This document shows, in pieces, positions 19,879-49,798 of a DNA stretch of 64,000 bases. The notes under the pieces are model-generated. The model made no database searches. It saw only the letters and a program-made list of their open reading frames with translations, and was not told where the DNA came from. Numbering within the stretch: position 1 is the first letter of the stretch; each line of letters opens with the position of its first letter. The translations under genes and the position numbers were made by a program. Origin of the DNA: a virus; IMG/VR virus record IMGVR_UViG_3300024257_000005, positions 41,678 through 105,677 of that record; one strand, given 5' to 3'.

Positions 19879-20073
19879 ATGGAAACAACAAGAAATTTTG
19901 GTAGAAAACTATTGACTGGAATATTTGGATTAGGGTGCGTATCTATGTCTCCTTTATTTATAACTGCATATCCTTTCATAGCTTCGCTAGCATGGATAAC
20001 TGGTGTCAGCATAATAACATATATAGTAGTATTCTGGGCTTCAAGCATAAGAGGGGAGCATTATGAGTTTTAA
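19879..20073 (+). CDS. small membrane protein
   Basis: SD GGAGG; two hydrophobic stretches. Confidence 0.55.
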   Translation: METTRNFGRKLLTGIFGLGCVSMSPLFITAYPFIASLAWITGVSIITYIVVFWASSIRGEHYEF

Positions 20074-21091
20074 AAAATATTCAAGCATCGATAATGCATA
20101 CAGAGAAAAGACTGTAAACTACTACATTATGCAAGGTCATACTCAAGGAATATGGAGAGGCCGTGAGAAAATTCATGGTGCTAATTTCCAGTTTGCATAT
20201 AATGGCGGTGAAGTGAAAATTGGAAAGCGATCAGCATACTTAAAGCCAATTGAACACATTGGATTCTTTAGATCAGATGTCATTTACGACCGCTATATTA
20301 ATTCAATTCACATCCTTGCAGCATCTCTAGAAATGTCAGTTCCGGATGGAACACCTCTAGAGTTTACTATTTATGGAGAGCTCTATGGTGGTGTTTATCC
20401 TCATCCCGATGTTGAAAAAGATCCAGAAGGTAAACAGGTTCAGAAGGGAATCTACTATGCACCTGGGAATCATTTTGCTGCATTTGATATGAAGCTAAAT
20501 GGTGAATTTGTTCCTGACGGCAGCTTTGAGGCTTTAATGGCTCTCATTGGAATGCCCGTTGCACCTATTCTTGTTGAAGGAACATTTGAAGAAGTGATGG
20601 CTTATACTAATGAAGGTCAATCAATTGTTGGTGTGAGATTACATGGTCTTCCTCCTATTGAGAATAATGTAATGGAAGGACTAGTAATAAAGCCCATAAT
20701 CCCACAGTATCTGAATGATGGCTCAAGGGTGATTCTTAAAAACAAGAATGAAAAATGGTCTGAAAAATCTAATAAGACTCGTGTTCCCAAGGCTGAAATA
20801 AAAATGACTTCAGAACAAAAAGATGTTTATTTATTACTATCAAACAGAGTTACCGAGAATAGACTTCGTAATGTCATTTCACATTTTGGCAATGTGACAA
20901 ACAAGGACTTCGGAAAACTTCTTGCATTAATGACTCAGGATATTATTACTGAGCACACTAAAGAAGATGAAGTTCTGCTTGCCTCAATGGAAGACAAGAA
21001 GGAACGTAAGCTATTAACTAAAATGCTTAATGGAGATATTGCAACTATGGTTCGCAAGAATTTCTTAAACATAATTGACGGAGAATTTTAA
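20063..21091 (+). CDS. rnl2: RNA ligase 2 (T4 Rnl2 family)
   Basis: FKKYSSI, EKIHGANF, GELYGG, EGLVIKP, KNKNEKWSE. Confidence 0.9.
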   Translation: MSFKKYSSIDNAYREKTVNYYIMQGHTQGIWRGREKIHGANFQFAYNGGEVKIGKRSAYLKPIEHIGFFRSDVIYDRYINSIHILAASLEMSVPDGTPLEFTIYGELYGGVYPHPDVEKDPEGKQVQKGIYYAPGNHFAAFDMKLNGEFVPDGSFEALMALIGMPVAPILVEGTFEEVMAYTNEGQSIVGVRLHGLPPIENNVMEGLVIKPIIPQYLNDGSRVILKNKNEKWSEKSNKTRVPKAEIKMTSEQKDVYLLLSNRVTENRLRNVISHFGNVTNKDFGKLLALMTQDIITEHTKEDEVLLASMEDKKERKLLTKMLNGDIATMVRKNFLNIIDGEF

Positions 21092-21255: not shown

Positions 21256-22905
<1,650 letters not shown>

Positions 22906-22995
22906 ATGGAATGATATTTAATAATAATTCCTCTAGTTTGACTACTTAGTGGTCCAGCTAGAGGAAGAATAAATAATTGACAAAGGAAAAAATAA
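22906..22995 (+). CDS. 29-aa membrane peptide with three TGA=Trp codons
   Basis: Starts immediately after groEL TAA; MEWYLIIIPLVWLLSGPARGRINNWQRKK. Confidence 0.5.
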
Positions 22996-23018
22996 ACTAG
23001 GCTTTTTGAAAACTACGT

Positions 23019-23028
23019 TATATTTATA
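23019..23028 (+). promoter_or_regulatory. putative late promoter for the tRNA-array leader
   Basis: TATATTTATA 3 nt before the leader ATG. Confidence 0.55.
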
Positions 23029-23031
23029 TAT

Positions 23032-23181
23032 ATGAAAAGAATTACAAACATATTATCCCGTTATTTTAGTAGACAACTCTGGTTGGGTTGTGGGGCGTGT
23101 TCGTTATGTGATAGTGTCTCAACACCAAAACATAATGCCATTGCTCGCAATGACGAACAACCTAGGGAGCCTTTTGTGTAA
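23032..23181 (+). CDS. putative attenuator leader peptide (49 aa)
   Basis: All 20 amino acids, 37 distinct codons; 3' end overlaps antiterminator arm. Confidence 0.65.
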   Translation: MKRITNILSRYFSRQLWLGCGACSLCDSVSTPKHNAIARNDEQPREPFV

Positions 23182-23216
23182 CGATTAATACAATCATATA
23201 GATTTACATAAAAGGC
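23169..23216 (+). promoter_or_regulatory. antiterminator hairpin
   Basis: GCCTTTTGTGTAA pairs with TTACATAAAAGGC (13 bp, one GU). Confidence 0.7.
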
Positions 23217-23244
23217 AAGAACTAAACCTCTTGCCTTTTTTATT
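23210..23244 (+). terminator. intrinsic terminator
   Basis: AAAAGGCAAGA-8 nt loop-TCTTGCC plus TTTTTTATT. Confidence 0.8.
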
Positions 23245-23255
23245 GCTCTTTAAAA
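23244..23255 (+). promoter_or_regulatory. boxA antitermination element
   Basis: TGCTCTTTAAAA versus rrn boxA TGCTCTTTAACA. Confidence 0.6.
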
Positions 23256-23261
23256 CAGTTG

Positions 23262-23289
23262 TTTCATTTTGAAAGATTGTGTGTATATT
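23262..23289 (+). promoter_or_regulatory. sigma70-type early promoter of the tRNA array
   Basis: TTTCAT-16-TATATT; repeat family member. Confidence 0.55.
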
Positions 23290-23422
23290 GACAAGTAAAT
23301 AGATTTTTGAAATAAAACTAAGAACGAGTGCTCCCAAAAAGATCCTGCATAGTACAGGTTGTGGTGCAGTGAGGTCAGGCGTTAATGACTCCACAAAAGA
23401 GAACGCAGTTTTTAGTTTGTTT

Positions 23423-23496
23423 GCTGGATTAGCTCAAGTGGGTAGAGCCGGGGTTTTGTAAACCTCAGGTTGCAGGTTCGAGGCCTGTGTCCAGCG
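23423..23496 (+). tRNA. tRNA-Thr(TGT)
   Basis: Cloverleaf; loop TTTGTAA. Confidence 0.9.
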
Positions 23497-23549
23497 CAGA
23501 TGTTTTTTGACAAATTTTTTATTAATGGGTTCTACTCCCATCCAAGAAT

Positions 23550-23633
23550 GCCTCGGTGGCGGAATTGGTAGACGCGCTGGTCTTAGGCACCAGTCCCCGA
23601 AAGGGGGTGCAAGTTCGAGTCTTGTTCGGGGTA
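23550..23633 (+). tRNA. tRNA-Leu(TAG)
   Basis: Class II cloverleaf; loop CTTAGGC. Confidence 0.92.
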
Positions 23634-23881
23634 CATAATTTAATTTCATTTAGTTGTTTCATTTGACTACACTGGGGTTAGATTAATAAGGTAAAAAGTT
23701 ATTTGACAATAAGGGCAATGAAGAAAAAGATAAAGTAAATGGGATGACACGGATTAACACATACACCCTCAAACAGGACACCCAAGTGGTACACCCTAAA
23801 GTAGGACATGCTTCCCCGTGCTCAAATACTTTTGATATAAAGAAGTGCTCCCTAGATCATTGGAATTTAGGGAGTTTATAT

Positions 23882-23956
23882 TCCGCCATAGCTCAGTCAG
23901 GTTAGAGCGCCGGATTGTTAATCCGGATGTCCTTGGTTCGAATCCAAGTGGCGGAG
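23882..23956 (+). tRNA. tRNA-Asn(GTT)
   Basis: Loop TTGTTAA. Confidence 0.93.
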
Positions 23957-24091
23957 CATTGCAACAAAAACGTGGGCAACGGGTCGTAGTGTGTAGGTTG
24001 AGGATACTCATCATATGGAACTAGCTTATTGTGTCCGTGGGGTGCCATCTTGTTCTGCAGGACAATGTTGGAATCAACCTCAAAACTTTAA

Positions 24092-24166
24092 GCCTCGCTA
24101 GCTCAATTGGCTCAGAGCAGTGGCCCTTTAAGCCATTGGTTCCAGGTTCGAGTCCTGGGCGGGGTA
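24092..24166 (+). tRNA. tRNA-Lys(TTT) with C33
   Basis: Loop CCTTTAA. Confidence 0.88.
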
Positions 24167-24187
24167 CAAAACGAAACTTAAAAATGA

Positions 24188-24268
24188 GTTGAGTAGACAC
24201 CCTATGGGCCATATTGGATAAGAGGTCATTAGACAGCGCTACCAAAGGTTCGAATCCTTCGCTCAATG
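24188..24268 (+). ncRNA. tRNA-like RNA (acceptor stem and T-arm, non-canonical body)
   Basis: GTTGAGT/GCTCAAT stem; AAGGTTCGAATCCTT. Confidence 0.55.
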
Positions 24269-24344
24269 TTGAAGATTTAAGTGGAAACTATTTGAACCAA
24301 TATATCAATTGGCCAAACGATATATTCAAATAGGGTAGAATTAT

Positions 24345-24419
24345 CGAGGTGTGGCGCAGTCCGGTTAGCGCACTTGCTTTGGGAGCAAGGGGTCGTAGGT
24401 TCGAATCCTACTACCTCGA
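24345..24419 (+). tRNA. tRNA-Pro(TGG)
   Basis: Loop TTTGGGA. Confidence 0.93.
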
Positions 24420-24505
24420 CGAGTTGAGCTGCCAGTCCAGATTACGGAGGCTATTCCAATGACGGTTCGTCCGATGAAAGAAATAGCAACATGGCATTTT
24501 TAAAA

Positions 24506-24577
24506 CCTGAGGAAGTCTAATGGTAGAGGCTGGGCCCAGGAAGTCTGGTATAGCAAGTTCGATTCTTGTCTTTGGGA
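24506..24577 (+). tRNA. degenerate tRNA, apparent AGG anticodon (Pro?)
   Basis: GU-rich acceptor and anticodon stems; T-arm GCAAGTTCGATTCTTGT. Confidence 0.45.
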
Positions 24578-24582
24578 CAAAC

Positions 24583-24656
24583 GTGGCATTAGTGTAATGG
24601 TAACATTCCAGATTTCCAATCTGGGGTTGCGGGTTCGAGTCCTGTATGCCACACCA
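24583..24656 (+). tRNA. tRNA-Gly(TCC)
   Basis: Loop TTTCCAA; encoded CCA. Confidence 0.92.
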
Positions 24657-24676
24657 ATAAAAAGAAAGGTTATATT

Positions 24677-25054
24677 ATGATCAAGGAACTTTATGAAGTA
24701 AGAGTAAATTTCACAATGGAGCGTGATGAATTTGAAAACGCTATTGATAAGATTCGAAATTGTATGAGAATCGAATTCAAAAGAGGAATTGCTTATGTTC
24801 CTGTTCCTCAGAATGCTCAACTCATAATTACTAACATTGAAGATTATTCAACAGCAGTACATATAGAGCAAAAAATATTAAATAATGGGCCAGTGGTGAA
24901 ACTGGTAAACGCAACAGGCTTAAGCCCTGTCGACCGTAATGGTCTTGTGGGTTCGAATCCCTCCTGGTCTACTTGGTCCATTAAACTAAATGAAAGGTTA
25001 TATTATGCAAGCATGGGGACACAAAACTCTCGAACAGTTAGACAAAATGACTGA
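24677..25054 (+). CDS. hypothetical protein whose frame runs through tRNA-Leu
   Basis: SD AAAGGT; 3' end uncertain. Confidence 0.4.
   Translation: MIKELYEVRVNFTMERDEFENAIDKIRNCMRIEFKRGIAYVPVPQNAQLIITNIEDYSTAVHIEQKILNNGPVVKLVNATGLSPVDRNGLVGSNPSWSTWSIKLNERLYYASMGTQNSRTVRQND
24887..24971 (+). tRNA. tRNA-Leu(TAA)
   Basis: Loop CTTAAGC; long variable arm. Confidence 0.92.
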
Positions 25055-25265
25055 TCAAAGATTGTTAGCTTATTATAAGGCTATTAGAGTTCCACAATGG
25101 AATTATAATAGCTGGTATGAAAACGACACTGAAGAATTCATTGAAGCTCAAGAAGCTTACATAGCAAAAGTTAAGATGGTTCTTGAAGATAGAGGACATG
25201 TAAAAACTCGTGGAAGAAAAGATCCCCATGTAAATGACAATACAAAGGATCCAAAATTAAAATAG
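25005..25265 (+). CDS. hypothetical protein
   Basis: SD AAAGGT; lies between tRNAs. Confidence 0.55.
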   Translation: MQAWGHKTLEQLDKMTDQRLLAYYKAIRVPQWNYNSWYENDTEEFIEAQEAYIAKVKMVLEDRGHVKTRGRKDPHVNDNTKDPKLK

Positions 25266-25337
25266 GGCCGTAGCTCAATTGGTTAGAGCACCGGACTGTC
25301 AATCCGGAGGTTGGGGGTTCAAGTCCCCTCGGTCCTG
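25264..25337 (+). tRNA. tRNA-Asp(GTC)
   Basis: Loop CTGTCAA. Confidence 0.93.
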
Positions 25338-25339
25338 CT

Positions 25340-25426
25340 GTGCATGTGGCAGATAGGTAATGCGCCTGGCCGTGGCCCAGGTTGGATAATATCCTCATGC
25401 GGGTTCAAATCCCGTCGTGCACCCCA
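25340..25426 (+). tRNA. tRNA-His(GTG) with long variable arm
   Basis: Loop CCGTGGC; C73; encoded CCA. Confidence 0.75.
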
Positions 25427-25509
25427 CCCAGTAATGTCATCCAGGCATTGACACCGGATTGTAATCCCGGTTCCTAATGGAGTTGTAGGTTCGAGTCCTT
25501 CTACTGGGA
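25427..25509 (+). tRNA. tRNA-Tyr(GTA), long variable arm, C1:G72
   Basis: Loop TTGTAAT. Confidence 0.75.
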
Positions 25510-25530
25510 CAAATTTAAAATGGAGAATAT

Positions 25531-26160
25531 ATGACTGAAAATTTAGCATTTAAAGATGGCAAGTGGACTGAAAAATGGTTTGATCAGAATATTGAAGCAT
25601 GGACTGAAGCAATCGATGGCTATAAAAAATATGAAGGTGATATTAAATCGGTTCTTGAAATTGGATGCTTTGAAGGTCGAGCAACTGTCTGGCTATGCAA
25701 TACTGTACCAACAATTGAAAAATATACAGTTATTGATACATTCAAAGGAAGCTTAGAAGAAAAAGGTATGGAACGAGCAAAAGATAATTTGACAAAAAAT
25801 GAAAGTCATATCAGATCAAATTTTGAACATAATATTTCTAAATTCAGAGACAAAATTGATTTCACAATAGTTGAAGGTGAATCACAGAGTATGCTGCATG
25901 ATATTAAAGGAAAATATGATTTCATATATATTGATGGAAGTCATAGATCTGATGATGTTTTTATAGATGCATACTGGGCAGATAAATTATTAAATGTGAA
26001 TGGCATAATGATTTTTGATGATTTTGGATGGACAAATCCCGATAGTGAATTATTAATTGATAGCCCAGGATTTGGAATTGGAGAATTTCTTACAATTCAC
26101 ACACATGATTACAATATATTTTTAAGAGGTTATCAACTCGGAATACAAAAAACAAAATAA
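25531..26160 (+). CDS. class I SAM-dependent methyltransferase (Methyltransf_24-like)
   Basis: LEIGCFEG, YIDGSH, IFDD. Confidence 0.85.
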   Translation: MTENLAFKDGKWTEKWFDQNIEAWTEAIDGYKKYEGDIKSVLEIGCFEGRATVWLCNTVPTIEKYTVIDTFKGSLEEKGMERAKDNLTKNESHIRSNFEHNISKFRDKIDFTIVEGESQSMLHDIKGKYDFIYIDGSHRSDDVFIDAYWADKLLNVNGIMIFDDFGWTNPDSELLIDSPGFGIGEFLTIHTHDYNIFLRGYQLGIQKTK

Positions 26161-26228
26161 GGAGAATGCTATGAGCAATGGAGGAATCGGTCGATTTAGT
26201 TAGTTAAACTAAATCAAGGAGACCGAAA

Positions 26229-26561
26229 ATGAGTAAGACCCAAAGAAGAAAAAAAGGACCAATCCCACAACATGTCACTCACGACTATGTAAAAGTAGGT
26301 GTTCGAATCAAAGAACATTATTACATTTATTACTGGGAATGGTTGCCTATAAGTGAGGAAGATCAAAAAATAGCCATTGCAAAATACTATTCTGATACTG
26401 GAATTGGTAGAAAATGGCCCGTACCAAGTTGGTATGCAAAAATGCTAAACAATGATTACAGAACAAAAGCCAGACACGAAATGCAAAAAATCAACTCATG
26501 GAAAGATTGGGAAGAATATGAATTCGATCCAAAGCTTAATTGCAAAGGCTGGTACTGGTAA
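26229..26561 (+). CDS. basic, Trp-rich hypothetical protein
   Basis: SD AAGGAG lies within a hairpin. Confidence 0.65.
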   Translation: MSKTQRRKKGPIPQHVTHDYVKVGVRIKEHYYIYYWEWLPISEEDQKIAIAKYYSDTGIGRKWPVPSWYAKMLNNDYRTKARHEMQKINSWKDWEEYEFDPKLNCKGWYW

Positions 26562-26610
26562 GATTTAAATAGTTTAGAGCTGTGGTTCTATTCAAAAACC
26601 ATAGCCACAT

Positions 26611-26684
26611 CCCCTGGTAGCTCCAATTGGTAGAGCGGTACAGTGAAATCGTATGCGATGCTGGTTCAAGTCCGGCCCGGGGGA
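26611..26684 (+). tRNA. tRNA-Phe(GAA)
   Basis: Loop GTGAAAT; weak anticodon stem. Confidence 0.8.
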
Positions 26685-26823
26685 CTAAGAGAATGACCTA
26701 CTAGGGCGACAAGCCTGCTCTATCTTTGCCTCACTGAACCACATTCAGAAGAGGGTGATATCAGCGGTCCTAATTTCTTTGGAAAGCCTAAACTTGTGGA
26801 AGGCGGTACCTCTTCTCTTTTAA

Positions 26824-26900
26824 CGCGCATTGGTCTAGTCTGGTTCTAGGACGTCGGGTTTTCATCCCGAAGGTCACCGGTTCGAATCCGGTATGCGTGA
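26824..26900 (+). tRNA. tRNA-Glu(TTC)
   Basis: Loop TTTTCAT. Confidence 0.92.
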
Positions 26901-26904
26901 CTAA

Positions 26905-26977
26905 TGGTCGGTTAGTGTAATGGTAACACCGCAGGTTTTGATCCTGCTATTATAGGTTCAAGTCCTGTATCGACTGC
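26905..26977 (+). tRNA. tRNA-Gln(TTG)
   Basis: Loop TTTTGAT. Confidence 0.9.
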
Positions 26978-26981
26978 ATAT

Positions 26982-27054
26982 CGCACTGTAGCTAAATGGT
27001 AAAGCCCCCGGCTCATATCCGGAAGATTTGGTGGTTCAAGCCCACTCAGTGCGA
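26982..27054 (+). tRNA. tRNA-Met(CAT)
   Basis: Loop CTCATAT. Confidence 0.85.
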
Positions 27055-27065
27055 CAACAATAGAA

Positions 27066-27138
27066 GGGGCATTAGCTCAGCTGGGAGAGCGCCGCACTTG
27101 CACTGCGGAGGTCGCAGGTTCGATCCCTGTATGCTCCA
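27066..27138 (+). tRNA. tRNA-Ala(TGC)
   Basis: G3:U70; loop CTTGCAC. Confidence 0.95.
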
Positions 27139-27206
27139 CTTTGAGATAAGCAGAGAAAGAGCCTGCAATTTTATCTCAATAGTCCGGATAGCTCTGCCGG
27201 ACACTC

Positions 27207-27277
27207 GGGTTATTAGTTCAATGGTAGAATACTCGCCTGTAAAGCGACAGATAGCAGTTCAAGTCTGTTATAACCCA
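27207..27277 (+). tRNA. tRNA with GTA (Tyr) anticodon and short variable loop
   Basis: Loop CTGTAAA; G1:C72; 4-bp anticodon stem. Confidence 0.7.
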
Positions 27278-27284
27278 CAATAAT

Positions 27285-27356
27285 GCACCATGAGCTCGAC
27301 GGTAGAGCAGCTGCCTGATATGCAGAAGGTACTAGGTTCAATTCCTAGGTGGTGTA
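27285..27356 (+). tRNA. tRNA-Ile(GAT)
   Basis: Loop CTGATAT. Confidence 0.88.
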
Positions 27357-27411
27357 CGAAACGAATCTCATTATAGGATAGCGTCCGACAATTAATTGGG
27401 ATTCGTATTTT

Positions 27412-27485
27412 GGCTTCTTAGCTCAGTAGGTTAGAGCAGCGGATTCTTAATCCGAAGGTCACAGGTTCAATTCCTGTAGAGGCTA
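27412..27485 (+). tRNA. tRNA-Lys(CTT)
   Basis: Loop TTCTTAA. Confidence 0.9.
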
Positions 27486-27539
27486 CAATCAAAACCATTT
27501 TTATAGTTCGAGTATATTTATATTAAACAGGAGAATAAT

Positions 27540-28217
27540 ATGAATATATGTGAAAATTGCAAACAAGAGCATGATGGACAATATGGATCTGGTAGATTCT
27601 GTTCAGATAAATGTGCAAGAGGATTTAGCACTAAGGCAAAAAGAAAAAACATTAATGAAAAAGTATCTAGAAAATTAAAAATTAATAAACCAATCAGATT
27701 CTGTAAGATCTGCAATGTAGAAATTGGATCTAGAACGCAGCTTGGATATTGTCAAAAACACCTATATGAAAGTGAAGAATATAGATCTCTATTAAGAAAG
27801 CCCCATAAATCAGGGTCTGGTGGTTTGAGAACAGGTGGAGGAAGATCAAAGGTGTTTGAATATGATAGTAAATATGCTGGGTTAGTTAAGCTAAATAAAC
27901 ATGAAATTGAAGTTGCAAAAATATTTGACTCATTAGAGATATTATGAAATCGTAACTGAAAAGGTTTTAGATATGTCGATCTAGAAGGTAGAGATAGAAA
28001 ATATTATCCCGATTTCTATATTCCAGAATTTGATTATTATGTCGAATATAAAGGATGAGTTAATGTAGTTTTAAATCATAAGATGAACAATGCTGTTGAG
28101 CTTAATGATTTTAAATTATTAATTATATATAGCGACGACAAGCGATACAGCCAGCTTGGACTATCGTTGTCAGAGCTTAAAAAATGTCCTCAAAAACTAA
28201 TTAGAGGTATCGGTTAA
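27540..28217 (+). mobile_element. free-standing putative homing endonuclease (Zn finger plus PD-(D/E)xK); TGA=Trp at 27945, 27957, 28056
   Basis: Readthrough gives WNRNWKGF..YYPDFY..VEYKGW; late motif at 27513. Confidence 0.75.
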
Positions 28218-28274
28218 TTGGCAAACCAACGCTCTCCAAAAGCGTGACTGGGAGTTCGAGTCTCTCTACCTCTG
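28203..28274 (+). tRNA. tRNA-Trp(CCA)
   Basis: Loop CTCCAAA; G73; C9. Confidence 0.92.
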
Positions 28275-28337
28275 CAATATGTAAGTCCTATTATGGATGG
28301 CACCAATCAATAGTCCGTTCATTCTAGGCAATAATTT

Positions 28338-28425
28338 GCTCCGTTAGCTCAGTCCGGTATAGAGCGCCTGCCTTACAAGCAGGAGGCCTCCTAGGTTTAC
28401 CTTGGTTCAAATCCAAGACGGAGTA
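28338..28425 (+). tRNA. tRNA-Val(TAC) with long variable arm
   Basis: Loop CTTACAA; extra arm AGGCCTCCTAGGTTT. Confidence 0.85.
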
Positions 28426-28430
28426 CAAAT

Positions 28431-28482
28431 AACTGTTTTATTCTCGCTGTTCTGGTGTATATTCTACCAACAACAAAAGGAG
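28431..28482 (+). promoter_or_regulatory. early promoter/RBS cassette
   Basis: AACTGTTTTA..TATATT..CAACAACAAAAGGAG. Confidence 0.75.
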
Positions 28483-28487
28483 TTGAC

Positions 28488-28946
28488 ATGAGAACAATTA
28501 ACATTTACACATTTGAGGAGCTTCCAACAGAAGTTCAGCAGCACATAATTAGCAGAAACAGACTAATATCTGTTCCTGAAGATTATGATGCACCAGCTCA
28601 AGAAGCTGCAAGGAGATTTGAAGTTGAGCTTGATGGCTGGAATGTCCACACATTAGAAGCTGGAGTTATCATCGGTGGACCTACCAAACTAAAGAAGCTT
28701 GCCGATAAATTTCTAATAGCTTCTGCATCTGATTCTGATATCTATAAAGAAGCTGAAACTTACTGGTTTGAAGGAACAAACGATATAAGATTTATTGCAA
28801 CCGTTGAAAAGTTTTTTGCAGAGATGCTCAGCAAATTATATTTCTCATACCAATCAGATTCAGCAGTTTATGATGGCCTTGTTGAACAAGGATGGGAATA
28901 TCTTATTGAGGGAAAAGTATTTAGCAAAAAAACAAAAGGAAGCTAA
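28488..28946 (+). CDS. hypothetical early protein
   Basis: Behind promoter cassette. Confidence 0.7.
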   Translation: MRTINIYTFEELPTEVQQHIISRNRLISVPEDYDAPAQEAARRFEVELDGWNVHTLEAGVIIGGPTKLKKLADKFLIASASDSDIYKEAETYWFEGTNDIRFIATVEKFFAEMLSKLYFSYQSDSAVYDGLVEQGWEYLIEGKVFSKKTKGS

Positions 28947-28947
28947 C

Positions 28948-29112
28948 ATGACTTTTACAGCGTACAACCACAATGATACAGGTCTTTGTGAACCTACCAC
29001 AAGGCAAGCCGCAATTAAAGAATCAAAAGAATACACCTTTGCAACTGGTAATGAAAGCTATGTCGCCAATAGCAAAGGTGAAATTGTACATGAGAATGTA
29101 AGAGGATATTAA
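28948..29112 (+). CDS. hypothetical protein
   Basis: SD AAGGA. Confidence 0.55.
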   Translation: MTFTAYNHNDTGLCEPTTRQAAIKESKEYTFATGNESYVANSKGEIVHENVRGY

Positions 29113-29313
29113 ATGAGAGATAAGATATATGAAAACTGGGCTAAGTGTGATCCAGTTCTTAGAAAAAGTCTTCTAGAAGCACTAACAATTCCTGAGTTAA
29201 AATTGATGGGTAGCTATTTTGATTATCCACTAAGAGGGAAAAAGAGTGAAATAGTTCATCAACTGATTGGATATTTTAAATCAAATGACAACTGGAAGGC
29301 TATCGCAAAATAA
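29113..29313 (+). CDS. hypothetical protein
   Basis: Abuts previous stop. Confidence 0.55.
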   Translation: MRDKIYENWAKCDPVLRKSLLEALTIPELKLMGSYFDYPLRGKKSEIVHQLIGYFKSNDNWKAIAK

Positions 29314-29315
29314 AT

Positions 29316-29395
29316 GCTCCCGTATGCCAGCCGGTTACGAGCCGGTATAAAGCTAATTGGATAGGAAGATGTCAGTTCGAGCCTGACCGGGAGTT
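29316..29395 (+). tRNA. rearranged, D-armless tRNA-Arg(ACG)-like RNA
   Basis: Acceptor stem identical to tRNA-Arg(TCT); GCCGG-TTACGAG-CCGGT arm; canonical T-arm. Confidence 0.65.
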
Positions 29396-29457
29396 CATGT
29401 ACACTATCCTAACGCGTTCACTCAGAGTGTACATGCGCAAATAGTGTACACATAGAT

Positions 29458-29532
29458 ATCGTAGTGGCTCGAAATGGCTTAGGCACCGGACTGCAAATCC
29501 GGATTATGGGGGTTCAAGTCCCCTCTACGATT
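29458..29532 (+). tRNA. tRNA-Cys(GCA)
   Basis: Loop CTGCAAA; U73. Confidence 0.9.
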
Positions 29533-29541
29533 CAAACCAAG

Positions 29542-29626
29542 GGAGGTTGTCCGGCTGGACGAGGAAGCTGTCTTGAAAACAGTCGGCGGGTAACACCGCT
29601 TGGGGGTTCAAGTCCCTCAGCCTCCG
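29542..29626 (+). tRNA. tRNA-Ser(TGA)
   Basis: Loop CTTGAAA; long variable arm. Confidence 0.92.
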
Positions 29627-29632
29627 CAAAAC

Positions 29633-29665
29633 AACTGTTTCATTGTACGCTGATATTGTTATATT
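29633..29665 (+). promoter_or_regulatory. early promoter
   Basis: AACTGTTTCAT..TATATT. Confidence 0.7.
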
Positions 29666-29691
29666 GATTCAACAAAATAAAGGGTTTCATA

Positions 29692-29907
29692 ATGGACTAT
29701 AAAGGCTTAGAAAAATTAAACAATGAGCTGGCTGTTAATCAGTCTGAATATTCTCATGATTATTTAGTATCAGTTGGAGATGGATTTCAAATGATTGAAG
29801 ATAAGTCGGGTTTTTGGTTACATGATCTAAGAGGAATGGATGCTGTGACTTATGGCCCATTCGATTCATTAGAAGAATTAAATGAAGAAACAAAGGATAT
29901 CGACTAA
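29692..29907 (+). CDS. hypothetical protein
   Basis: Behind promoter. Confidence 0.6.
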   Translation: MDYKGLEKLNNELAVNQSEYSHDYLVSVGDGFQMIEDKSGFWLHDLRGMDAVTYGPFDSLEELNEETKDID

Positions 29908-30110
29908 TGGATAAGAAATTACCAAACAACTGGAAGCTTATCAAAACGGATGGATCACCAGTACAAGAAGAGCCGGTCGTTCCTGCAGACAATTTTGTTC
30001 AAACAATTGCTGCAAATGTAGATAATACAGGAGCAACTGATGCAGAATTCAGAGAATTTATCAGAAACACATTACCGATTGTTATCTATGATCGTAATGA
30101 AAACGAATAA
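29907..30110 (+). CDS. hypothetical protein
   Basis: TAATG coupling. Confidence 0.55.
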   Translation: MDKKLPNNWKLIKTDGSPVQEEPVVPADNFVQTIAANVDNTGATDAEFREFIRNTLPIVIYDRNENE

Positions 30111-30129
30111 ACAAAGAAAGAGGTTACAA

Positions 30130-30327
30130 ATGAACGCATTGATTCAATTAATTTTTGGTGGAATTGGTTTAGTACTGGCCATATTTTTATCGTCATTCGT
30201 ACTTGCAATCCCTATGATGCATTTATGGAACTGGTTGATTGTTACTTATCTCGCTATTGCTCCAGTTACATACTGGCAGGCATGGAGCTTAACAGCAGTC
30301 TTATCATTCTTGATCAAAGGTAAATAA
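30130..30327 (+). CDS. small membrane protein
   Basis: Hydrophobic; LWNW..VTYWQA. Confidence 0.6.
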   Translation: MNALIQLIFGGIGLVLAIFLSSFVLAIPMMHLWNWLIVTYLAIAPVTYWQAWSLTAVLSFLIKGK

Positions 30328-30330
30328 TCT

Positions 30331-30404
30331 GCTCCCGTAGCTCAACTGGATAGAGCAACGGTTTTCTACACCGTAGGTTGGGGGTTCGAATCCCTCCGGG
30401 AGTA
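30331..30404 (+). tRNA. tRNA-Arg(TCT)
   Basis: Loop TTTCTAC; A20. Confidence 0.94.
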
Positions 30405-30724
30405 CTGTAACACTATTTCCGATCATTAACAAAGCAAATGTTACATAACATAAGAAATGTTACAAGGAGTCTATATGAGTTTCTTAATTAAATTCAAACA
30501 TCAGATATATTGTCAGGGGTATGAAAATACCTGGGATACTGTACTCGTCAGAAGTGCAATTGATTTTGATGATGCATGTGCTCAACTTCGTGTCAAATAT
30601 GACAATGCACAATATTTTAAAAATATGACTGTTTAGTGGAATATTTTATACTGATCATATATTGGGCTGGATGGATCATTGCTGGAAGTGTCATACTGTG
30701 TGATTTCGTCAAAAAGTTTACAAA

Positions 30725-30799
30725 GGGCCGGTAGCTCAGTCTGGTTAGAGCAACCGACTCATAATCGGCAGGTCGCAGGTTCGAATCCTGCCCGGCCCA
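30725..30799 (+). tRNA. tRNA-CAT (Ile2 or Met)
   Basis: Loop CTCATAA; Ile2-like GGGCC acceptor. Confidence 0.88.
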
Positions 30800-30819
30800 C
30801 AAAACAAAGAGGAGTCAAT

Positions 30820-31083
30820 TTGAGCTCATATGAAGATGTAAAAAAAGAATTTATGAGGCTATGTATTTACCATGGATTAGAAATTCCCGGCATTGCCCCC
30901 TCATTTAGAACTGATAAATGCGACACAACATGCCCACCAATTTATGTAAGAATAAAAGAGCAAGATTGTGAATCGATATATCATGCAAGACATTTGTTTG
31001 GACACTATTTGGCAGACCTTCATGATAATAATGATGAAGCTGCAGATATTGTTGCAGACATCATAGCTGGACTAATAAAATAA
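30820..31083 (+). CDS. hypothetical protein
   Basis: SD GAGGAG; TTG start. Confidence 0.5.
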   Translation: MSSYEDVKKEFMRLCIYHGLEIPGIAPSFRTDKCDTTCPPIYVRIKEQDCESIYHARHLFGHYLADLHDNNDEAADIVADIIAGLIK

Positions 31084-31085
31084 TT

Positions 31086-31174
31086 GGAGGAATCGACATT
31101 GGTACGTCAAGCACTTTGCTAAAGTGTGGCTCGGTAACTCCGAGTTGCTGGTTCAAATCCTGCTTCCTCCGCCA
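31086..31174 (+). tRNA. tRNA-Ser(GCT)
   Basis: Loop TTGCTAA; long arm; encoded CCA. Confidence 0.9.
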
Positions 31175-31361
31175 ATAAAATAAAGGGTAGTATTATGAAA
31201 ACAGAATATGTAGAAAAAGCTTTAAAGAGAATTGAAAATTTGAATAGCGATCTTTATAATGTAAATCTTGATCCTCTCGTTAGGGCAGCTATCAAGGTTG
31301 AATTGGAAAATATGTTTGACACTATTCCAGAAGGCTTCACGCCCTTACATTATTAATTATT

Positions 31362-31432
31362 GCAGGATTAGTATAGTGGTAATACGTGTGCTTGCCAAGC
31401 ATGAGTCAGGAGTTCGAGTCTCCTATCCCGCA
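31362..31432 (+). tRNA. tRNA-Gly(GCC)
   Basis: Loop TTGCCAA. Confidence 0.9.
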
Positions 31433-31457
31433 CAAACATAAAACGAAAGGTTATAAA

Positions 31458-31820
31458 ATGAGCGACAAATTTGAAAAACTTGATGGTATGGTCAAGAGAG
31501 TTAATAACATTGTTGATGCTAACGTTAGAATACAGAAGGCAATATTCGAAAACAATCTCGACACATTAGATCTTGCAACTGTTTCACAAATCCTTAACGA
31601 TACAAATACTTTATTAATTGAATTATTTGAACATAGTCTTAGTGAAGCACAAGAAATTGATAAGATGAGGAAAGATCACATCAAGACGCTAACTGATTTC
31701 GTAGCAACACTGGATAAACAAAAAGATCTAACAGCTCTTTCAAAATTGATTGCTAGAGAAGAAGGCCGTCAAGAAGGAATTGAAACTGCTCGACTATGGA
31801 CGCGACCTAGTTGGATATAA
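31458..31820 (+). CDS. hypothetical helical protein
   Basis: SD AAAGGT. Confidence 0.6.
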   Translation: MSDKFEKLDGMVKRVNNIVDANVRIQKAIFENNLDTLDLATVSQILNDTNTLLIELFEHSLSEAQEIDKMRKDHIKTLTDFVATLDKQKDLTALSKLIAREEGRQEGIETARLWTRPSWI

Positions 31821-31839
31821 AATAAAGGATTAATATAGA

Positions 31840-32526
31840 ATGAAATTATTTGTATGTGGAGACAATCATTGTCCTATTGACATGAGAAAGCTCAACAGTA
31901 AAAATTGGCCAGAGAAAAAAGAACTCACAAAGGATGATATTTTAGTAGTTCTTGGAGACTGGGGTGTGATCTGGAAAGGTGAGATGGATAATGGTGAAGC
32001 ATATTGGATCAAATGGTTTAATGAGCAGAAATTCACTACAATCATCGTCCCCGGAAATCATGAGAATTGGCACCGATTAAGAGAATATCCTTTAATGACA
32101 AAATTTGGTGGCCGAGTTCGACAGATTAGCGATTCAATTTTTATGGCTGAGAGACCTTCTGTATTAAATATTGAAGGCAAGTCTATATTCTGTTTTGGAG
32201 GTGCTGAATCTCATGACAAAGCATGGAGGACTGAAGGATTGTCTTGGTGGCCAGAAGAAGTTCAGAGCCATGCAGAACAAGAGCTGGCACTAGATATTCT
32301 TGCTGAACATGACTATAAGTTTGACTATGTTTTTACTCACACATGTCCTACTGAGGTTGTTGAGATGATTATTTCGCACAAAGCAAATTGTTCAACTTCA
32401 AGATTTTTATCTCATATTAGAGCAAATATTGAATACGATGAATGGCACTTTGGACACATGCACGAAGATGTCACTTTGGGAAAGTTTCATTGTCACTATA
32501 ACGGCAAGCCTGAGCAAATCATTTAA
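31840..32526 (+). CDS. calcineurin-like metallophosphoesterase
   Basis: GDNH, GDWG, GNHE, THTCP, GHMH. Confidence 0.9.
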   Translation: MKLFVCGDNHCPIDMRKLNSKNWPEKKELTKDDILVVLGDWGVIWKGEMDNGEAYWIKWFNEQKFTTIIVPGNHENWHRLREYPLMTKFGGRVRQISDSIFMAERPSVLNIEGKSIFCFGGAESHDKAWRTEGLSWWPEEVQSHAEQELALDILAEHDYKFDYVFTHTCPTEVVEMIISHKANCSTSRFLSHIRANIEYDEWHFGHMHEDVTLGKFHCHYNGKPEQII

Positions 32527-32529
32527 AAT

Positions 32530-32581
32530 AACTGTTTCATCTGCGCAAGTTAAGTGTATATTACAGCAACAACTAAAGGAG
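32530..32581 (+). promoter_or_regulatory. early promoter/RBS cassette
   Basis: AACTGTTTCAT..TATATT..AAAGGAG. Confidence 0.75.
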
Positions 32582-32587
32582 TAAACA

Positions 32588-32965
32588 ATGAAAGCTGCAG
32601 ATTATATGAACGATAAATTTAAAAGAGCTTTTCAGCCTGATGACGAATCGGGTGCTCTTGCTGCAATGCTGGCAACTGTAAATACCTTGGCCAGTGAAAT
32701 TTCTGAAAATTATTACTCAGATGAAAACACTCCAACTCGTTTTAATATTGAAAAATCTGAACAGATCAAGAAAGCAATTTCAAACTATGAAGATAAGATT
32801 GCTCTCATTAATATTTCAGATCTGACTTTTGCAAAAATGATGGCAAACATCGTGCTTGGTCATTTCATTGAAGCCGTAAAGGTTGTAAGGCAAGACACTG
32901 GAGCAGGACTTAAGAATTCAAAAGAATACTGTGATCAGTTCAAAGAGGCCGCACAGCAAATTTAA
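32588..32965 (+). CDS. protein with ribosomal bL12 C-terminal-like motif
   Basis: IEAVKVVRQDTGAGLKNSKEYCD. Confidence 0.6.
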   Translation: MKAADYMNDKFKRAFQPDDESGALAAMLATVNTLASEISENYYSDENTPTRFNIEKSEQIKKAISNYEDKIALINISDLTFAKMMANIVLGHFIEAVKVVRQDTGAGLKNSKEYCDQFKEAAQQI

Positions 32966-33104
32966 TGGAATTTTTTATACATTAAATTGATTTCCAGTAT
33001 ATAGATATATATTTATATATGTTATTTGAAACAATTAGGTGAGAATGTTCATATATGTGAACTCCTTTCAATGACACAGAATGTTCTCACCGTTATTATT
33101 AAAT

Positions 33105-33178
33105 TGCGGTGAAGAGCAGTCTGGTTGTTCACTTGGTTCATAACCAAGAGGTCGGTGGTTCGAATCCACCCTCCGCTA
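33105..33178 (+). tRNA. initiator-like tRNA-Met(CAT)
   Basis: 1:72 mismatch; loop TTCATAA. Confidence 0.85.
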
Positions 33179-33246
33179 CTAAATGTTTTTTGAAACAAAT
33201 TGAATCTTATTACTCCAATGGTGAGCAATATTGATTCTACAAAATT

Positions 33247-49440: not shown

Positions 49441-49798
49441 GGGGCCGACCTGGATTCGACGGGATGATTTTTGACAATAAGTGCAAGTAGACAGAGTGAG
49501 TCTTAAAAACTAAACAACCAGAGATAACTGGCACAAACTACGCAATCGCAGCCTAAGGAATTAGGCAGCCGTTAGCTCCACGACTTCGATAATGGAGGTC
49601 TAACGTCGTTTTCGAATAGGTATTTATGCAACAAGTTTCACCGAATTGAAACTGGATCACTGCGGCCATGAGTATACATGCCGATAAGATTTGTTGGAGT
49701 TCTAAATTCGTATTAATTGAAAGAAACCAACTAAACTTGTGAACGACTTGTTGAAGGAAGCTTTGCGGACGGGAGTTCGATTCTCCCCGGCTCCACCA
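49441..49798 (+). ncRNA. ssrA: tmRNA, tag (A)GTNYAIAA
   Basis: 5' GGGGCCGACCTGGATTCGAC; 3' T-arm and CTCCACCA; tag at 49530..49556 after ATAACT. Confidence 0.95.

Follow-up and report, generated by a model that had tools for sequence, protein, structure and literature searches.

A terminator/antiterminator switch stands at the entrance of a large phage tRNA array. The switch is real and very unlikely to be a product of chance, and it is the strongest part of the finding reported here. Taken with the 49-codon ORF that runs into it, it is probably a ribosome-coupled transcription attenuator, of the leader-peptide type, that would sense decoding speed ahead of the tRNA genes. This reading draws on the geometry of the region, on marginal ORF statistics and on analogy; the transcription start, translation of the ORF and the physiological signal are inferred. 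The whole element is about 270 nt long.

The window, by which we mean the entire stretch of 64,000 nucleotides that was analysed, comprises bases 41678-105677 of a 105.7-kb IMG/VR virus record with an estimated completeness of ~50%. Near-identical DNA is present in seawater metagenomes and metatranscriptomes. All long ORFs of the record lie on the plus strand, and its gene content includes a tail sheath, a tail tube, a baseplate hub, a DnaE-type polymerase, RNR, UvsX, an Rnl2 RNA ligase, GroEL, 27 tRNAs and a tmRNA. No close match was found among cultured phages (DnaE 29% identical, Rnl2 33% identical). Most genes of the phage carry an AGGAG or GGAG Shine-Dalgarno (SD) sequence, which argues that the host uses SD sequences.

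The tRNA array occupies 23423..33179 on the plus strand (ARAGORN), provides for all 20 amino acids and is interspersed with small ORFs. Upstream of the leader on the same strand lies groEL (21271..22905), a 544-aa ORF with tblastn matches to chaperonin GroEL, and transcripts leaving groEL would also run into the leader. An Rnl2-family RNA ligase (20063..21091, plus strand; phrog_548, 2.6e-67; PF09414 and PF18043 in homologues) is found 2 kb upstream; elsewhere, tRNA repair enzymes adjoin such tRNA arrays. The genome that carries this full tRNA set, Rnl2 and GroEL also encodes a tmRNA with the tag GTNYAIAA (window 49441-49798). Reading TGA as Trp lengthens a nuclease-like ORF at 27540-28217 of the window from 135 aa to 225 aa; the three TGA codons of this ORF fall at Trp-like positions and it ends 15 nt inside tRNA-Trp(CCA). 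The extended form of this ORF may reflect TGA recoding in the phage.

Terminator and antiterminator before the tRNA genes

The intrinsic terminator (23210..23244, plus strand) consists of an 11-bp stem with an 8-nt loop (23210-23239, dG -13.6) and a T-run that extends to 23244. Its 5' arm can be claimed by a second helix on the same strand. Region 2 (GCCTTTTGTGTAA, 23169..23181), which is the last 13 nt of the leader ORF including the TAA stop, forms the 5' arm of this antiterminator and pairs with region 3 (TTACATAAAAGGC, 23204..23216) over 13 bp, one of them G-U, in a hairpin of dG -14.6. Because both helices use 23210-23216, where region 3 overlaps the terminator 5' arm, antiterminator and terminator are mutually exclusive. 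The attenuator geometry that the first-pass annotation had described was recovered.

The antiterminator duplex has an energy of -17.8 kcal/mol compared to -8.8 ± 1.8 kcal/mol for dinucleotide shuffles, and none of 2000 shuffles reached it. A scan of the plus strand of the 105.7-kb record gave 12 terminator-like sites, and a significant upstream competitor helix was found at one only, the leader terminator (z -5.8); at the remaining 11 sites the competitor z ranged from -1.8 to +1.1. A second terminator-like hairpin, at 23848-23874 before tRNA-Asn, was considered as an instance of the same design and rejected, as it has no competitor helix (z +1.1) and an overlapping ORF reads through it. This ORF of 53 codons (window 23744-23905) contains 19 kinds of amino acid, passes the hairpin and stops inside tRNA-Asn.

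Folding of 23032-23250 gave the same energy, -50.9 kcal/mol, whether the terminator or the antiterminator was enforced. RNA that extends only to 23229, before the terminator 3' arm exists, adopts the antiterminator fold, and when pairing is forbidden in 23164-23195, a ribosome-sized footprint at the stop codon, the terminator alone remains. The folds agree with the effect that had been proposed for a ribosome: a masked stop leaves the terminator only, and unmasked nascent RNA takes the antiterminator. In these folds, and as a matter of geometry only, the position of the ribosome would decide which helix forms. With both folds equal in energy and the antiterminator adopted by nascent RNA, readthrough would be the default and termination would need region 2 to be occupied; a terminating ribosome is the obvious candidate for its occupant. 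No significant partner that would give a 1:2 pairing or an anti-antiterminator was found (the best upstream partner of region 2 had -14.4 kcal/mol, p 0.24). The leader RNA as a whole is moderately structured (z -2.05), and none of the Rfam 15 covariance models, T-box included, matched 22900-23422 at E ≤ 1.

A boxA-like sequence (TGCTCTTTAAAAC, 23244..23256, plus strand) has 2 mismatches to the E. coli rrn boxA over 13 nt. The match is confined to a 10-nt core, TGCTCTTTAA at 23244-23253, as judged against TGCTCTTTAACAA. Of the boxA claimed after the terminator, then, the core is present and statistical support for it is absent, as 6 matches with up to 2 mismatches were found in the window and 3.5 were expected. 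The boxA-like sequence would be transcribed only by polymerases that have gone past the terminator.

Promoter motifs and the leader ORF

Just ahead of the leader ORF lies motif A (TATATTTATATAT, 23019..23031, plus strand), a candidate late promoter. The late-type motif that had been reported at 23019 is indeed recurrent: TATATTTA at the leader is a copy of it, and TATATTTAT occurs 13 times in intergenic DNA versus once in coding DNA. Motif A has 18 plus-strand sites, some directly 5' of the tail sheath, tail tube and baseplate hub genes, and this position before structural genes fits a late promoter. Like the T4-type late promoters (TATAAATA), motif A consists of one AT-rich element, 8-9 nt in length, lacks a -35 box and precedes structural genes; unlike them, it has the consensus TATATTTAT and a start site that is predicted only. 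If motif A is spaced as the T4 late element is, +1 would be A23032, and a leaderless start of the ORF at 23032 is predicted solely from this spacing. A second motif-A promoter (TATATTTATATATG) was seen before tRNA-Met (window 33008-33105). Behind it is a 7-codon ORF whose TGA stop lies within the 5' arm of a 13-bp hairpin (33038-33091; fold z -2.4), with a U-rich stretch next and then tRNA-Met.

The leader ORF (23032..23181, plus strand) has 49 codons and no SD sequence ahead of it, whereas most genes of the phage have one. On recounting, the ORF does contain all 20 kinds of amino acid and 37 distinct codons. ORFs with all 20 make up 3.4-4.6% of composition-matched random ORFs and 1.8% of 49-codon windows of real genes, and are 2 of 70 among small six-frame ORFs. 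Of the 24 anticodon species in the tRNA array, 22 read codons of the leader ORF, a coverage reached by 0/69 other small ORFs, by 2.3% of gene windows and by 6.4% of random ORFs. The diversity that had been claimed for the ORF lies above the expectation from random ORFs, but marginally so (p about 0.02-0.06), and the statement that many of its codons end in G or C was too strong, GC3 being 0.33 versus 0.28 in long genes. Runs of regulatory codons are absent, and each amino acid occurs one to a few times.

The codon-usage score of the ORF (-0.11 per codon) coincides with the median for spurious ORFs, and every 49-codon window of real genes scores higher (mean 0.35, sd 0.13). In 8% of shuffles the frame is open to region 2 by chance. 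Each property of the leader ORF is only marginally unusual, and high codon diversity is also the look of a non-coding frame, so that the sequence hints weakly at translation. No homologues of the 49-aa peptide were found in an IMG/VR peptide scan or in a word-indexed search of 5.8 billion clustered proteins, and a full HMMER search of 1.84 billion representatives with the peptide returned long repetitive proteins only.

A different promoter motif, motif B (TGTTTCAT-N15-GTATATT, 23260..23289, plus strand), is located downstream of the terminator. Its general form is (A)ACTGTTTCAT-N15-18-GTATATT, also AACTGTTTCAT-N15-18-GTATATT, and it occurs at six sites, at 23260, 29636, 32533, 41684 and 43137 in the window and at G000:C1:37558. 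In 4/6 copies a near-identical 5' UTR (GTATATTGTAGCAACAAAGGAG) and an SD sequence follow. The early promoter that had been placed near 23262 accordingly corresponds to a recurrent bipartite motif 3' of the terminator. The terminator is separated from the first tRNA by 178 nt, and motif B lies in this interval. Given this gap and the separate promoter, the terminator could simply insulate two transcription units, which would count against an attenuator.

Contigs from four metatranscriptomic libraries cover, unbroken and with no difference from the window, the stretch that leads from groEL past the terminator up to at least 23422. They hint weakly at the existence of readthrough RNA; contigs give neither levels nor ends, and DNA carry-over is possible. 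Contig depth is flat and cannot measure termination. In two runs, contigs have an end or a junction exactly at 23422, the last base before tRNA-Thr, where cleavage by RNase P is expected. In one contig 23422 is joined directly to 23965, so that tRNA-Thr, tRNA-Leu and tRNA-Asn are skipped.

Among the alternatives is a stand-alone late unit, encoding a roughly 213-nt small RNA or the 49-aa protein, with the tRNA array driven by motif B only and the 13-bp hairpin acting as a structural or stability element. We consider this unlikely, even though the layout runs from promoter to terminator with a separate recurrent promoter immediately 3', and even though the RNA is moderately structured and has an internal hairpin in the ORF (23098..23159, plus strand; dG -17.7 versus -11.1 ± 2.5 in shuffles, p about 0.01), at which RNA polymerase might pause. 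Termination of such a unit would be undermined by a hairpin that ties up the 5' arm of its own terminator, the protein searches returned no homologue, and the RNA-library contigs cross the terminator.

tRNA arrays of the Chryseobacterium type

The exact terminator sequence was not found elsewhere in IMG/VR. Searches for close relatives of the phage through GroEL gave a best match of 70% identity with no tRNAs nearby, and those through a 714-aa protein, Rnl2 and DnaE gave none. No relative was recovered from IMG/VR, JGI metagenomes or GTDB genomes. Alignment scans with Rnl2 reached at most 44% identity in the JGI metagenomes and at most 40% in GTDB genomes; Rnl2 proteins that are 71% identical (P0002, P0003) are present in Logan and ENA assemblies. 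A search for relatives with the motif-B pattern produced single random matches only.

The Rnl2 scans did uncover many loci at which a large tRNA array adjoins Rnl2, in chromosomes assigned by their titles to Chryseobacterium and other Flavobacteriia (L107-L129, L209-L280). In these arrays a conserved ORF of 38-45 codons (MKQLHNISNQYS...DKRCLYTWVS) stands immediately before the first tRNA, and its internal stretch AAGGTGCTTATATA pairs with TATATA-c-AGCACCT, the 5' arm of a strong terminator. Among 41 distinct peptides, 20 kinds of amino acid are present in 18, 19 kinds in 16 and 17-18 kinds in 7, compared to reference 41-aa windows of real proteins, of which 1% have 20 kinds and 5% have 19. Variable sites are distributed 17/15/17 over the three codon positions. 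This even spread argues that the peptide is not conserved as a protein's is, yet the frame is open. The antiterminator is paired in 97.5% of cells and the terminator in 100%, with one compensatory GC<->AU pair, and the shared column fits both helices. A leader design that uses all amino acids therefore exists and is maintained in arrays of this type.

In both the phage and the Chryseobacterium-type cassette, an ORF of ~40-49 codons with 18-20 kinds of amino acid contains a near-copy of the terminator 3' arm inside it or at its end, a large tRNA array follows 3', and an Rnl2 ligase lies within a few kb. The two differ in spacing, as in 8/10 metagenome loci examined about 3 nt separate the end of the Chryseobacterium-type terminator from the first tRNA (the exceptions, L113 and L121, have a gap of about 50 nt), whereas the phage has a gap of 178 nt and a promoter in it. 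Hosts of the Chryseobacterium-type family, moreover, do not use SD sequences. Homology between the phage ORF and the Chryseobacterium leaders was rejected, since BLASTP gave no alignment and hhalign a probability of 6% over the first 10-11 residues only. With no significant homology, the resemblance is one of analogy.

This parallel bears on whether the phage switch is read by ribosomes at all. The terminator might instead respond to a protein that binds RNA, to a small RNA, to a tRNA or to pausing of the polymerase, with the frame incidental. Such a signal would accommodate the contrast between a statistically solid switch and translation-specific features that are all weak (no SD, codon usage like that of spurious ORFs, a frame open in 8% of shuffles). 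We nevertheless regard it as rather doubtful. It would leave to coincidence that the stop codon falls exactly within region 2 and that the AUG is found at the predicted +1, and the Chryseobacterium-type family holds its frame open over 41 diverged leaders. Neither an Rfam family, T-box included, in 23032-23420 (E ≤ 1) nor a candidate binding repeat was seen.

That an ordinary terminator on the groEL side was joined by chance with an inverted repeat and an ORF, both of them accidental, is very improbable: the ORF properties have p values of about 0.03-0.08 singly and many windows were scanned before the leader was picked out, but the inverted repeat is matched by 0/2000 shuffles and is unique among 12 terminators, all the features meet at the tRNA array entrance, and the layout recurs in the unrelated Chryseobacterium-type family.

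Proposed mechanism and comparison with known attenuators

In the ribosome-coupled attenuator that we favor, transcription from motif A would start at or next to A23032 and place the AUG at or near the 5' end of the RNA. While region 2 is free of a ribosome, 23169-23181 would pair with 23204-23216, the terminator 5' arm would be sequestered and polymerase would continue into the tRNA genes. A ribosome that keeps pace and is on or near the TAA would mask region 2 with a footprint of about 23164-23195; the terminator at 23210-23244 would then form and the transcript would be cut off at a length of about 213 nt. Readthrough would follow if decoding slowed or stalled at any point within roughly the first 40 codons. 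As the ORF samples all 20 amino acids and 22/24 of the array anticodon species, it would be a gauge of general decoding speed and not a sensor of a single amino acid. The motif-B promoter downstream would allow tRNA transcription that is independent of the attenuator.

That the leader would sense the loss of any tRNA, and especially that it would respond to host anticodon nucleases, is speculation. In its fullest form this idea describes a counter-defence module, in which a leaderless test ORF with all amino acids would detect the loss of any host tRNA, for example to anticodon nucleases, and would open late transcription into a replacement tRNA set beside Rnl2, a phosphoesterase and tmRNA, with boxA making the readthrough polymerases resistant to termination over the untranslated array. 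We think a module of this kind improbable.

The proposed attenuator shares with trpL, hisL and the multivalent thrL and ilvL attenuators a promoter-proximal short ORF, an intrinsic terminator and an exclusive antiterminator, and in each, termination would be permitted once region 2 is masked by a ribosome at the stop codon. Several features set the phage element apart from the enterobacterial attenuators. Its ORF has no runs of regulatory codons and no significant 1:2 pairing, lacks an SD sequence and is putatively leaderless. The downstream genes encode tRNAs and not biosynthetic enzymes, and a bypass promoter lies behind the terminator.

The trn operon of Anabaena sp. PCC 7120 is a 26-gene tRNA array (L-array) that is induced 100- to 1000-fold by ribosome-targeting antibiotics and is co-regulated with the RNA ligase rtcB (PMC8421152, PMC10272220). 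Its control involves direct repeats in the promoter and the TrcR repressor, and neither an attenuator nor a leader peptide is mentioned in either report (PMC8421152, PMC10272220). It resembles the phage array in being large and supernumerary and in its association with an RNA ligase and homing-type nucleases, and its expression goes up when translation is impaired, as is proposed for the phage; the difference is that the published control acts at the promoter. Full-text literature searches returned no description of leader-peptide attenuation of tRNA arrays, and the Chryseobacterium-type cassette of mini-ORF, antiterminator and terminator was not found in the literature searched.

It is debated for what reason large phages have near-complete sets of tRNAs and by what means the expression of these sets is timed. 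The roles proposed for phage tRNAs include matching codon usage, making up for the shut-off of the host and evading defence systems that cleave tRNAs. A switch through which decoding speed directly controls tRNA transcription would, if true, be a simple feedback loop that adjusts tRNA supply to demand. Leader-peptide attenuation, a textbook mechanism of amino-acid genes, would then also apply to tRNA genes, and would sense all amino acids where a single one was sensed before.
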